Below, piece after piece: positions 9,920 to 54,359 of a DNA stretch of 64,000 nt; position 1 is the first letter of the stretch, and every line of letters starts with the position of its first letter. Made by a program: the position numbers and the translations under genes. This stretch comes from Escherichia coli. Lineage in GTDB: Bacteria; Pseudomonadota; Gammaproteobacteria; Enterobacterales; Enterobacteriaceae. Location of the stretch: the NCBI RefSeq assembly GCF_003334785.1, contig NZ_QOWV01000002.1. One strand, given 5' to 3'. The notes beneath the pieces were generated by a model. That model did not search any database. It had not been told where the DNA came from and saw only the letters and a program-made list of their open reading frames with translations.

Positions 9920-9935
9920 AGAATAAAAATAATTA

Positions 9936-47387: not shown

Positions 47388-48431
47388 ATGCGCTATCGCA
47401 TTTTCCTTCTCTTTTTTTTCGCTTTGTTGCCGACGTCTTTGGTGTGGGCGGCACCAGCGCAACGGGCGTTTTCCGACTGGCAGGTCACCTGTAATAACCA
47501 AAATTTCTGCGTGGCGCGTAATACGGGCGATCATAATGGACTGGTGATGACCCTGAGCCGCAGCGCCGGGGCGCATACCGATGCCGTTTTACGTATTGAG
47601 CGCGGCGGATTGAAGTCGCCGGAGGCGTCAGAAGGGGAGATAGCGCCACGGCTGCTGTTAGATGGCGAGCCGTTGGCGTTAAGTGGTGACAAGTGGCGGA
47701 TTTCACCATGGTTATTAGTAACCGATGATACGGCAACCATCACCGCGTTTTTGCAGATGATTCAGGAAGGGAAGGCAATCACCTTACGCGATGGCGATCA
47801 GACCATTTCTCTGAGTGGCTTAAAAGCAGCGTTGTTGTTTATTGATGCTCAGCAAAAGCGCGTTGGCAGTGAAACCGCGTGGATCAAGAAAGGGGACGAA
47901 CCGCCGCTCAGCGTACCGCCCGCGCCTGCGCTGAAAGAGGTCGCGGTGGTTAACCCAACGCCGACGCCACTCTCACTCGAAGAACGCAACGATTTGCTGG
48001 ATTATGGAAACTGGCGGATGAATGGTCTGCGCTGCTCGCTTGATCCATTGCGTCGTGAGGTGAATGTCACTGCGCTGACTGATGATAAAGCGCTGATGAT
48101 GATTAGCTGTGAGGCAGGGGCCTATAACACCATTGATTTGGCATGGATTGTGTCGCGTAAAAAGCCACTAGCTTCGCGCCCGGTTCGGTTGCGTTTGCCG
48201 TTCAACAACGGTCAGGAGACGAATGAACTGGAACTGATGAACGCAACATTTGATGAGAAATCGCGTGAACTGGTGACCTTAGCGAAAGGGCGCGGATTAA
48301 GCGATTGTGGCATTCAGGCGCGCTGGCGCTTTGACGGTCAGCGTTTTCGCCTGGTGCGTTACGCCGCAGAACCCACCTGCGATAACTGGCATGGGCCAGA
48401 CGCCTGGCCCACGTTGTGGATCACCCGTTAA
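47388..48431 (+). CDS. ypfG: Periplasmic DUF1176 protein YpfG
   Basis: 347 aa; cleavable signal peptide (MRYRIFLLFFFALLPTSLVWAAPAQ). Confidence 0.8.
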   Translation: MRYRIFLLFFFALLPTSLVWAAPAQRAFSDWQVTCNNQNFCVARNTGDHNGLVMTLSRSAGAHTDAVLRIERGGLKSPEASEGEIAPRLLLDGEPLALSGDKWRISPWLLVTDDTATITAFLQMIQEGKAITLRDGDQTISLSGLKAALLFIDAQQKRVGSETAWIKKGDEPPLSVPPAPALKEVAVVNPTPTPLSLEERNDLLDYGNWRMNGLRCSLDPLRREVNVTALTDDKALMMISCEAGAYNTIDLAWIVSRKKPLASRPVRLRLPFNNGQETNELELMNATFDEKSRELVTLAKGRGLSDCGIQARWRFDGQRFRLVRYAAEPTCDNWHGPDAWPTLWITR

Positions 48432-50548: not shown

Positions 50549-51499
50549 TTATAGTTTGGCGGCAAGAAGATCTTCCAGTTTGCGTTGATCAACGGCGAAC
50601 AGACGAATGCCTTCAGACAGTTTTTCTACCGCCATCGCATCCTGATTGTGCTCCCAACGGAACTCCGCTTCGCTCATGGGAGCTGGGCGTGGGAACGTCT
50701 GAGAAGGTGGGATTAATTTACGTACCACTGGCGAAACTTTTTCCTGCAGCTCCTTCAGTAAATTCGGTGCGATAGTCAGTCGATCGCAGCCGGTTAAGGC
50801 GAGGATTTGTTCGGTGCGACGGAAGCTCGCGCCCATCACAATGGTTTCATAGTGGTGTTGCTTATAGTAGTCGTAGATATTGCGCACCGATTTAACGCCC
50901 GGATCTTCTTCCACCACATACGGGTCCATCGGCTTGCGTGCCTGATACCAGTCATAAATACGCCCGACAAACGGCGAAATCAGAAAAACGCCTGCTTCCG
51001 CACAGGCCCGTGCCTGTGCAAAAGAAAACAGCAGCGTCAGGTTGCAGTTAATACCTTCTTTTTCCAGCTCTTCTGCCGCGCGAATTCCTTCCCAGGTCGA
51101 AGCCAGCTTGATCAGAATGCGTGATTTCTCAACGCCTTGTTGCTGATACAAGTCCACCAGATGGCGCGCCTTCTCAATACTCTTTTCTTTATCAAAAGAG
51201 AGGCGTGCATCAACTTCTGTTGACACGCGACCGGGTACGATTTTGAGGATTTCAGCACCGAAATTGACCGCCAGTTTGTCACACGCTGCGACCACCTGTT
51301 GTTCCTGGGTCTTGCCATTTTTTTTACCCCAGGCGATAGCATCGTCTATTAAATGCTCATATTGTGATAATCCGGCAGCTTTGAGTAACAGCGAAGGATT
51401 GGTGGTGGCATCCTGGGGATGATAATGGCGAATGGACTCAATATCGCCGCTGTCTGCCACGACAGTGGTGAACTGTTTGATGCCGTCTAACTCGTTCAT
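50549..51499 (-). CDS. talA: Transaldolase A
   Basis: 316 aa class I transaldolase; upstream of tktB in a talA-tktB operon. Confidence 0.92.
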
Positions 51500-51787
51500 A
51501 GGAAATACTCCTTGAAAAGTAAAGTGTTAGATGAGTGCGTTAATTCACACTTCTGAGAAATTTCGCTAAACGCATCAAAAAAGCATAGCAGACAGGCATG
51601 GTATTGCTGGATTAAGCAGGTAACATCAGTGTTATAGGATTATTACCAAAACATTATATTAATGGTGAGAGTTTGGACTTGCTCAAAGTCTGTAGACTCC
51701 GGCAGGGTAATAATGTGCGCCACGTTGTGGGCAGGGGCTGTTGCCCACACACTTTATTTGTGAACGTTACGTGAAAGGAACAACCAA

Positions 51788-54067
51788 ATGGATGACCAGT
51801 TAAAACAAAGTGCACTTGATTTCCATGAATTTCCAGTTCCAGGGAAAATCCAGGTTTCTCCAACCAAGCCTCTGGCAACACAGCGCGATCTGGCGCTGGC
51901 CTACTCACCAGGCGTTGCCGCACCTTGTCTTGAAATCGAAAAAGACCCGTTAAAAGCCTACAAATATACCGCCCGCGGTAACCTGGTGGCGGTGATCTCT
52001 AACGGTACGGCGGTGCTGGGGTTAGGCAACATTGGCGCGCTGGCAGGCAAACCGGTGATGGAAGGCAAGGGCGTTCTGTTTAAGAAATTCGCCGGGATTG
52101 ATGTATTTGACATTGAAGTTGACGAACTCGACCCGGACAAATTTATTGAAGTTGTCGCCGCGCTCGAACCAACCTTCGGCGGCATCAACCTCGAAGACAT
52201 TAAAGCGCCAGAATGTTTCTATATTGAACAGAAACTGCGCGAGCGGATGAATATTCCGGTATTCCACGACGATCAGCACGGCACGGCAATTATCAGCACT
52301 GCCGCCATCCTCAACGGCTTGCGCGTGGTGGAGAAAAACATCTCCGACGTGCGGATGGTGGTTTCCGGCGCGGGTGCCGCAGCAATCGCCTGTATGAACC
52401 TGCTGGTAGCGCTGGGTCTGCAAAAACATAACATCGTGGTTTGCGATTCAAAAGGCGTTATCTATCAGGGCCGTGAGCCAAACATGGCGGAAACCAAAGC
52501 CGCATATGCGGTGGTGGATGACGGCAAACGTACCCTCGATGATGTGATTGAAGGCGCGGATATTTTCCTGGGCTGTTCCGGCCCGAAAGTGCTGACCCAG
52601 GAAATGGTGAAGAAAATGGCTCGTGCGCCAATGATCCTGGCGCTGGCGAACCCGGAACCGGAAATTCTGCCGCCGCTGGCGAAAGAAGTGCGTCCGGATG
52701 CCATCATTTGCACCGGTCGTTCTGACTATCCGAACCAGGTGAACAACGTCCTGTGCTTCCCGTTCATCTTCCGTGGCGCGCTGGACGTTGGCGCAACCGC
52801 CATCAACGAAGAGATGAAACTGGCGGCGGTACGTGCGATTGCAGAACTCGCCCATGCGGAACAGAGCGAAGTGGTGGCTTCAGCGTATGGCGATCAGGAT
52901 CTGAGCTTTGGTCCGGAATACATCATTCCAAAACCGTTTGATCCGCGCTTGATCGTTAAGATCGCTCCTGCGGTCGCTAAAGCCGCGATGGAGTCGGGCG
53001 TGGCGACTCGTCCGATTGCTGATTTCGACGTCTACATCGACAAGCTGACTGAGTTCGTTTACAAAACCAACCTGTTTATGAAGCCGATTTTCTCCCAGGC
53101 TCGCAAAGCGCCGAAGCGCGTTGTTCTGCCGGAAGGGGAAGAGGCGCGCGTTCTGCATGCCACTCAGGAACTGGTAACGCTGGGACTGGCGAAACCGATC
53201 CTTATCGGTCGTCCGAACGTGATCGAAATGCGCATTCAGAAACTGGGCTTGCAGATCAAAGCGGGCGTTGATTTTGAGATCGTCAATAACGAATCCGATC
53301 CGCGCTTTAAAGAGTACTGGACCGAATACTTCCAGATCATGAAGCGTCGCGGCGTCACTCAGGAACAGGCGCAGCGGGCGCTGATCAGTAACCCGACAGT
53401 GATCGGCGCGATCATGGTTCAGCGTGGGGAAGCCGATGCAATGATTTGCGGTACGGTGGGTGATTATCATGAACATTTTAGCGTGGTGAAAAATGTCTTT
53501 GGTTATCGCGATGGCGTTCACACCGCAGGTGCCATGAACGCGCTGCTGCTGCCGAGTGGTAACACCTTTATTGCCGATACATATGTTAATGATGAACCGG
53601 ATGCAGAAGAGCTGGCGGAGATCACCTTGATGGCGGCAGAAACTGTCCGTCGTTTTGGTATTGAGCCGCGCGTTGCTTTGTTGTCGCACTCCAACTTTGG
53701 TTCTTCTGACTGCCCGTCGTCGAGCAAAATGCGTCAGGCGCTGGAACTGGTCAGGGAACGTGCACCAGAACTGATGATTGATGGTGAAATGCACGGCGAT
53801 GCAGCGCTGGTGGAAGCGATTCGCAACGACCGTATGCCGGACAGCTCTTTGAAAGGTTCCGCCAATATTCTGGTGATGCCGAACATGGAAGCTGCCCGCA
53901 TTAGTTACAACTTACTGCGTGTTTCCAGCTCGGAAGGTGTGACTGTCGGCCCGGTGCTGATGGGTGTGGCGAAACCGGTTCACGTGTTAACGCCGATCGC
54001 ATCGGTGCGTCGTATCGTCAACATGGTGGCGCTGGCCGTGGTAGAAGCGCAAACCCAACCGCTGTAA
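51788..54067 (+). CDS. maeB: NADP-dependent malic enzyme (malic enzyme domain fused to a C-terminal phosphotransacetylase-like domain)
   Basis: 759 aa; N-terminal malic enzyme/NAD(P)-binding region and PTA-like C-terminal half. Confidence 0.93.
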
Positions 54068-54085
54068 TTTTTTTTAACTCTCACG

Positions 54086-54109
54086 CTTACCCTGAATATT
54101 CAGGGTAAG
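54086..54109. other. Perfect 24-bp palindrome CTTACCCTGAATATTCAGGGTAAG downstream of maeB (terminator hairpin or operator-like site)
   Basis: Exact reverse-complement symmetry about the central AATATT; lies 19 bp after the maeB stop and ~250 bp upstream of eutS. Confidence 0.5.
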
Positions 54110-54359
54110 CAGTTTAGCTGCAATATATTAGTAAAGCTTATTACTGAGTTTGCGAATAATAAAAAAAAGCAGTCTATATAATATCTCGATATTATTTTAT
54201 TTATATTCATGCGTTGCATATGAAAGTTTATGCACCACAGCGAATATCTCTCCATTCTTAGTGATCTACCTCACCTTTTAAACGCGCTTGCCGAATTTTG
54301 TTATTTACTCTGACGAAAAATTGTCACGATACACGAAAGTTTTTCACAGGCGGCGACTC

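Follow-up and report, generated by a model that had tools for sequence, protein, structure and literature searches.

Hfq sites in mRNA leaders, such as those of ompA and sodB, consist of an A/U-rich single strand and a flanking stem-loop, and leader attenuators such as those of pyrBI, thr and trp combine a G+C-rich stem-loop with a T-rich stretch. Small RNAs may also derive from 5' UTRs, as described for ChiZ and IspZ (PMC7815308). The leader of maeB, the NADP-malic enzyme gene of Escherichia coli, resembles each of these systems in part. As in the attenuators, a G+C-rich leader stem-loop is followed by a T-rich stretch, and an upstream pairing that would exclude the stem can be drawn; as in the ompA and sodB sites, the stem-loop and then a U-rich strand lie 5' of a site complementary to the small RNA Spot 42 that overlaps the ribosome-binding region; and as in ChiZ and IspZ, a long 5' UTR (121 nt) contains an internal hairpin with a U-rich tract, and its very conserved 5' segment might in principle provide an sRNA seed. 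Unlike the attenuators, the maeB leader has its U-tract off the stem and contains neither a conserved leader peptide nor a sensing element, no 3' end is recorded and the competing helix lacks covariation, and the stem is polymorphic within E. coli and replaced or absent in other genera. Unlike at ompA and sodB, binding of Hfq is only putative, Klebsiella keeps the pairing site without the U-run, and an ARN-rich Shine-Dalgarno region provides an alternative candidate Hfq site. Finally, unlike ChiZ and IspZ, the leader has no 3' end in the curated tables of PMC7815308 and gives no sign of a stable short RNA.

The window that we have analyzed is a stretch of 64,000 nucleotides of E. coli DNA. It contains tal/talA on the minus strand (50549-51499) and maeB on the plus strand (51788-54067), with a divergent spacer of 288 bp between them that is present in 5425 of the 5426 complete genomes of E. 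coli, as a single copy in each. A genome-wide map of transcription starts (Kim 2012) lists a single maeB start, at NC_000913.2 position 2576520, supported by 611 reads and giving the 121-nt 5' UTR (PMC3415461); the last letter of the 51-mer listed upstream of this start corresponds to window position 51667 (PMC3415461, supplementary file 2). The experimentally mapped start is thus at 51667 on the plus strand (PMC3415461), preceded by the -10 hexamer TATATT at 51655-51660 (-12 to -7), a sequence not kept in other genera. Since transcription begins here, the hairpin is located at +60 to +83, inside the transcribed leader. A sequence-only reading of this DNA had placed it there, and the published start does precede the stem rather than lying downstream of it.

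The same reading had described a stable hairpin in the talA/maeB divergent spacer, and we confirm both its sequence and its coordinates. Arms and loop can be read directly from the letters, and folding agrees: the stem-loop occupies 51726-51749 on the plus strand, where the 5' arm T51726-A51733 (TGTGGGCA) forms 8 perfect pairs with the 3' arm T51742-A51749 (TGCCCACA) around the loop 51734-51741. A possible G51734.U51741 wobble would extend the stem to 9 bp and shorten the loop to 6 nt. With 8-9 bp, 5 of them G-C pairs, and a loop of 6-8 nt, the structure falls within the range of terminator-type stems (∼5-14 bp, 3-8 nt loop). It is followed directly by CACTTTATTTG, and the maeB ATG (51788) is 38 nt past its end. 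The T-rich stretch that had been noted after the stem is also present, though offset by CAC and interrupted, and corresponds to the U-rich tract CACTTTATTT at 51750-51759 (plus strand), recognized both in the sequence and in the comparison across genera. Further downstream is the maeB Shine-Dalgarno sequence AAGGA (51775-51779, plus strand), 8 nt before the ATG and not paired with the hairpin.

Folded alone, the stem has an energy of -14.3 kcal/mol, and within the full mapped leader its pairs form with probabilities of 0.73-0.99. In a 43-nt context the energy is -15.9 kcal/mol, corresponding to z = -1.44, with 18 of 200 shuffled sequences folding equally well, and a 48-nt leader segment that includes the hairpin gives z = -0.82. 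Perfect 8-bp hairpins are not rare in the 64-kb window, where ∼19 distinct examples (32 raw) compare with ∼11 raw in Markov-simulated windows; the chance of such a stem in a 290-nt spacer is a few percent. The hairpin is real, but statistically only weakly above chance. A scan with the covariance models of Rfam 15 gave no relevant family, the best hits reaching 11-14 bits (E-values 4-6.5) where the gathering scores are 40-80; an IS128 match at 51488-51574, with 13 bits and a gathering score of 80, is noise. A dispersed repeat of the REP/BIME or ERIC kind was ruled out with blastn (word size 11), as a 60-nt query matched a median of one place per genome in the 5425 E. coli genomes.

The account that we favor, and to which we give about even odds, is that the hairpin is an ordinary, autonomous and evolutionarily labile leader stem-loop and not a switch, with at most a small passive effect. 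RNA polymerase would start maeB at 51667, as in the published mapping, and the stem, transcribed at +60 to +83, is predicted to fold locally with a probability of ∼0.99. Polymerase would then presumably read through, the U-run being interrupted and offset by CAC. Since the stem is predicted to contact neither the Shine-Dalgarno sequence nor the start codon, its effect on maeB would be small, at most a passive contribution to structure or stability. The stem would then be the E. coli-specific occupant of a helix/U-rich-tract position that appears to be loosely maintained in the Enterobacteriaceae. The suggestions that the hairpin might act as an attenuator or modulate translation find no support, given the geometry, the 3'-end data, the variation in the population and the comparative analysis, each of which is considered below.

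With respect to translation, both the Shine-Dalgarno sequence and the start codon are outside the stem, the former starting 24-25 nt past its end, so that neither is paired within the structure. The mean unpaired probability over 51773-51780 is 0.66 when the stem is present and 0.68 when the allele G51731A abolishes it, while for the Spot 42 site the accessibility is 0.59 with the stem and 0.55 without it. The translation-modulating role proposed earlier is therefore not borne out by the distance or by the predicted accessibility, nor by the occurrence of the stem-breaking allele in 558 of 5426 genomes.

This allele deserves some comment. In the segment 51716-51775, 4249 of the 5426 complete genomes are identical to the window and 1177 differ. 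G51731A, found in the type strain ATCC 11775 and in Nissle 1917 among others, turns a central G-C pair into an uncompensated A.C mismatch and lowers the probability of the stem to 0.01-0.02. Strains of phylogroup-B2 type that carry it, Nissle 1917 for example, are natural stem-disruption mutants. A second common substitution, C51752A, occurs in 561 E. coli genomes and is located outside the stem, in the CAC spacer before the U-run. Some features of the E. coli data count against an ordinary hairpin: the perfect stem is kept in 90% of E. coli genomes, the divergent E. coli RMDEC465 keeps the stem via a G.U wobble with a changed loop, and the chance occurrence of an 8-bp stem is, as given above, no higher than a few percent.

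The comparison beyond E. coli included 14 species among the genome-scan matches listed, 44 unique metagenome leaders gathered by a conserved-box pattern, and named Klebsiella records; it was made without Salmonella, E. albertii and E. fergusonii. The leaders are modular: after a conserved box come 17 nt of variable spacer and GATACT, then a structured block that varies, a T-run, CCGATACGTGAAAGGAA and the ATG. None of Citrobacter, Enterobacter, Leclercia and Klebsiella has the E. coli stem sequence. In Citrobacter werkmanii an interrupted stem of 11 bp, unrelated to it, precedes CAC-U6 (z = -1.8), and in the Enterobacter-, Kosakonia- and Leclercia-type leaders a GGGUG...CACCC helix closes a loop of 17-21 nt ahead of U5. 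The counterparts of the U-tract are accordingly CAC-T6 in Citrobacter and CACCC-T5 in Enterobacter-type leaders; Klebsiella-type leaders have CCCCUACGA in place of the U-run, and in three lineages (L093, L107 and L149) the whole block is deleted.

Across 33 non-E. coli leaders the pairing of the helix is 94%; both partners have changed in 2 of its pairs, and there is one clean compensation from U-A to C-G (L112), but the GGG:CCC core is invariant. The covariation score of this helix was matched by only 4 of 500 shuffles of the 33 leaders. The RNAalifold consensus energy is only -1.04 kcal/mol, and z-scores for 20 lineages range from -2.1 to +0.5 (mean ∼-0.65), no lineage being clearly more structured than its shuffles. 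We also considered whether the E. coli stem might be homologous to the GGGUG/CACCC helix. A covariance model built from the non-E. coli leaders scores the E. coli leader at 36.7 bits, by way of the flanks, and puts the stem in the loop, so that strict homology is tentative. Judged by these alignments, the leaders appear to share a loosely maintained position in which a helix is followed by a U-rich tract, and not a well-supported conserved RNA structure. Against lability, the recurrence of helix and U-rich tract with different stems, the compensation and the result with 4 of 500 shuffles hint that there may be some structural selection. One record stands apart. The plasmid NZ_CP069915.1 (19.7 kb, listed as 'Klebsiella oxytoca plasmid'; hit H71) matches the talA-maeB spacer of E. 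coli and the 5' end of maeB at 100% identity, as compared to ∼75% for genuine Klebsiella. The record probably contains E. coli DNA that was recently transferred or was introduced by contamination or misassembly.

In order to judge the hairpin as a terminator we have looked at its tail and at the recorded 3' ends. The stem is followed by CAC-UUUAUUU, that is, by 3 non-U bases and then an interrupted U-run, and not by an uninterrupted U-tract within 0-2 nt of the stem base. A d'Aubenton-Carafa-style calculation gives a tail score of 2.15 and a discriminant of -20, among the lowest of the hairpins scored, as compared to 4.66 and +24 for the hairpin at 9935, which is the window's one clear terminator. 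This measure is only comparative, as the hairpins 3' of maeB and tktB have discriminants below zero too. A simple terminator scan does flag the hairpin, and it is unspecific, because sites within the talA and maeB coding sequences are flagged as well. The Term-seq tables of Adams 2021 (PMC7815308) list no 3' end in the spacer (25783xx-25785xx); talA, maeB and tktB are also absent from these tables, and since even the 3' ends of maeB and tktB are missing, the negative result is a weak one, maeB maybe being too weakly expressed. Among the papers searched, none ties maeB to attenuation.

Two upstream segments can compete with the stem. Segment 1, GC(G)CCAC (51717-51723, plus strand), is able to pair with GTGGGC (51727-51732) according to thermodynamic folding, forming a small hairpin with a probability of ≤0.01 in the full leader and ∼0.5 in nascent RNA. 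The second, GGGUAAUA (51705-51712, plus strand), can pair with UGUUGCCC (51739-51746), as predicted by thermodynamics only, and in nascent RNA with its 3' end at 51749 this fold has a probability of 0.51 vs 0.44 for the stem; in the full leader the stem prevails. The near-even competition calculated for nascent RNA is the sole positive hint of a switch. An antiterminator hairpin formed by segments 1 and 2 was considered and rejected: it is 64-81% paired in two registers, with covariation not above shuffles. The leader can also be read as containing a 16-codon uORF, MCATLWAGAVAHTLYL, that runs across the hairpin (51713-51763, plus strand) behind a weak Shine-Dalgarno sequence, CAGGG. Both common E. 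coli SNPs are non-synonymous in it, and as a leader peptide it was discarded, being frameshifted in E. coli RMDEC465 and reduced to 4 codons in Citrobacter L002. With its poor tail, no listed 3' end, no covariation of the competitors and no conserved uORF, the attenuator that had been proposed is not supported.

Downstream of the U-rich tract is a sequence complementary to Spot 42 (spf was identified). This site, ACGTTACGTGAAA (51764-51776, plus strand), ends 11 nt before the ATG and pairs with region III of the small RNA, UUCACGUAAUCGG; its position is kept across Enterobacter-, Klebsiella-, Citrobacter- and Leclercia-type leaders, as CCGATACGTGAA. The duplex with region III has an energy of -13.2 kcal/mol, which is not significant as 482 of 1000 shuffled leaders do as well. 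Pairing on energy alone was thus set aside, and a calculation with the full-length duplex is meaningless. A published reanalysis, available as a secondary report, gives a 2.1-fold decrease of maeB on spf overexpression and a RIL-seq contact between Spot 42 and maeB (PMC8534726). On the basis of position and literature 51764-51776 is likely the Spot 42 pairing site. The arrangement is that of an sRNA-target module, with the pairing site near the ribosome-binding site and the stem and U-rich tract (51726-51759) adjacent to it.

The leader also contains a conserved architecture at its very 5' end. Starting at the maeB transcription start, E. coli has GAGAGTTTGG-N6-TCAAAGTCT-N17-AATAAT (51667-51714, plus strand), defined by comparison of 47 distinct sequences, and the other genera have GAGAGTTTGG-N6-TTCAAAGTTT-N17-GATACT, in which the 17-nt spacing is invariant and free of indels throughout the 47 (L002-L015, L086-L157). 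RNAalifold gives 0 pairs for the box on these 47 sequences, and an architecture that is kept in this way and has no conserved RNA structure suggests a signal at the level of DNA. From its sequence and spacing, box-N17-GATACT might represent either a second promoter or a binding site for a transcription factor. A conserved 5'-terminal stem-loop of the box (51667-51700, -11.5 kcal/mol in E. coli) was examined and rejected, with 64.7% pairing and the covariation score reached by 196 of 500 shuffles. By eye, the N6 of the box and the spacer seemed to covary (GGCAGCC/GGCUGCC), an impression that the helix test does not support. The box and GATACT may also be read in a sigma-28-like manner, the halves resembling the consensus with a spacing of 14 and not 11.

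With this evidence in hand the other explanations of the hairpin can be weighed. The stem together with CACUUUAUUU might constitute a weak intrinsic terminator, or attenuator, that halts a fraction of polymerases, with the GGGUAAUA (51705-51712):UGUUGCCC (51739-51746) and CCAC:GUGG pairings as antiterminator, so that maeB mRNA would result from read-through and a short leader RNA from termination. We consider this unlikely. A G+C-rich stem with a T-rich tail, flagged by the simple scan, a nearly equal competition with the alternative fold in nascent RNA (0.44 vs 0.51) and a helix plus U-run that recurs in Citrobacter and Enterobacter-type leaders would all fit. However, CAC intervenes between the stem and a broken U-run, with the low tail score and discriminant given above, the scan also marks the talA and maeB coding sequences, the Term-seq tables list no 3' end (PMC7815308), the competing helix lies upstream without covariation, there is no conserved leader peptide and no Rfam family, Klebsiella lacks the U-run and some lineages the whole block, and the stem is broken in 10% of E. 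coli genomes. Were there attenuation, a post-initiation control point would be added to NADP-malic enzyme, a carbon/NADPH node whose transcriptional control is poorly described; the evidence against it spares a futile follow-up of the hairpin. A more elaborate proposal, in which helix and U-tract act as a conditional premature terminator, modulated by pairing with Hfq/Spot 42 or by CreB at the cre tag described below, and release a trans-acting RNA of ∼90 nt, strikes us as very improbable; the ultra-conserved 5' segment GAGAGUUUGG...UUCAAAGU would in that case act in trans, and the E. coli hairpin would represent the module at its strongest. Doubtful as well, to our minds, is that stem-loop and A/U-rich strand form a docking module for Hfq that helps Spot 42 to repress maeB at times of glucose supply. 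A stem-loop with an A/U-rich single strand is the classical context for Hfq and is found here directly 5' of the Spot 42 site, the complementarity stays 11 nt from the ATG in the different genera, the drop in maeB on spf overexpression and the RIL-seq contact come from the secondary report (PMC8534726), most lineages have a U-rich tract beside a helix, and the lineages in which the block is deleted (L093, L107 and L149) also have a weakened site, ACGTAAAAGG. On the other hand the duplex energy is no better than that of shuffled leaders (482/1000), Klebsiella-type leaders retain the site without the U-run, L112 and L134 retain the module though the site is weakened, and the predicted accessibility of the site is unchanged by the stem. 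Judging from the sequence, the ARN repeats (AGG-AAC-AAC) of the Shine-Dalgarno region could be the Hfq site instead.

Two further explanations invoke the DNA. In one, the NATAMT hexamer (AATAAT, 51709-51714) would be the -10 element of a second maeB promoter with a start at ∼51720, placing the stem 4-6 nt from the 5' end of the transcript, where it would protect against 5'-end-dependent decay and slow it. The invariant 17-nt spacing and the hexamer kept in 47 distinct sequences, a box without RNA structure, which favors a DNA-level signal, and stem probabilities of 0.95-0.97 from starts near 51720 make the proposal worth stating; we nevertheless find it quite improbable, since Kim 2012 lists only one maeB start, 51667 (PMC3415461), the -35 position is occupied by a non-canonical AAGTCT/AAGTTT and a promoter scan was empty, and genera with the same hexamer lack a conserved stem. 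From the mapped start the stem begins at +60, and so is not a 5'-terminal hairpin of the ompA type. In the other, the palindrome TGTGGGCA-N8-TGCCCACA would be an operator that binds a dimeric transcription factor, either as a roadblock to maeB transcription at +60 to +83 or acting on talA from upstream. An inverted repeat of 8 perfect base pairs around an 8-bp spacer, situated in a divergent regulatory spacer and beside a cre tag, has the appearance of such a site. Its sequence is, however, not conserved outside Escherichia, 10% of E. coli genomes have a mutation in one half-site, the palindrome is single-copy with nothing similar elsewhere in the genome, and we know of no transcription-factor consensus that matches it; this explanation seems to us very improbable. 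We thus return to the ordinary leader stem-loop, and to its surroundings, which are in fact the more rewarding part of the spacer. The strongly conserved sequence that adjoins the stem is probably regulatory. On the downstream side it comprises the Shine-Dalgarno sequence and the likely Spot 42 site, with the cre tag in E. coli, and on the upstream side GAGAGTTTGG...TTCAAAGTTT-N17-GATACT. A map of the talA-maeB spacer that shows the transcription start, the likely Spot 42 site, the cre tag abutting the ribosome-binding site and box-N17-GATACT offers better experimental targets than the stem.

The cre tag is a perfect match to the CreB consensus, TTCAC-GTAACG-TTCAC (TTCACGTAACGTTCAC), at 51760-51775 on the minus strand, that is, the talA strand. 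It is the sole TTCAC-N6-TTCAC match in the 64 kb, where 0.09 are expected. It begins 10 nt beyond the 3' end of the hairpin, and 12 nt separate it from the maeB ATG. The direct repeat is specific to E. coli, other genera having GACCGATACGTGAA. Published work has established talA as a CreBC-activated gene and member of the Cre regulon, and the position of the tag, read from the sequence, suggests that CreB could also affect maeB.

In the non-E. coli genera (L002-L157, for example L004:1340-1379) a further palindrome, TGTTAT-AAATTG-ATAACA, is found upstream of the box, after GGTAACAT. It overlaps the expected maeB/talA promoter region, is degenerate in E. coli (TGTTATAGGATTATTACCA, 51630-51648), and is probably a candidate operator for some regulator. 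A 2025 preprint based on a reporter assay includes talA among the candidate targets of an osmotic-stress activator, the right half of whose motif resembles TCCTAAAAT; by eye, TCCTATAAC on the talA strand (51633-51641, minus) is similar to this motif. Two other hairpins of the window may be mentioned, one right after the maeB stop codon (54085-54110; 11 bp, perfect, -18 kcal/mol) and one after tktB (48392-48411, minus strand; 8 bp, perfect). Both are likely 3'-end hairpins, each with a poor U-tail.
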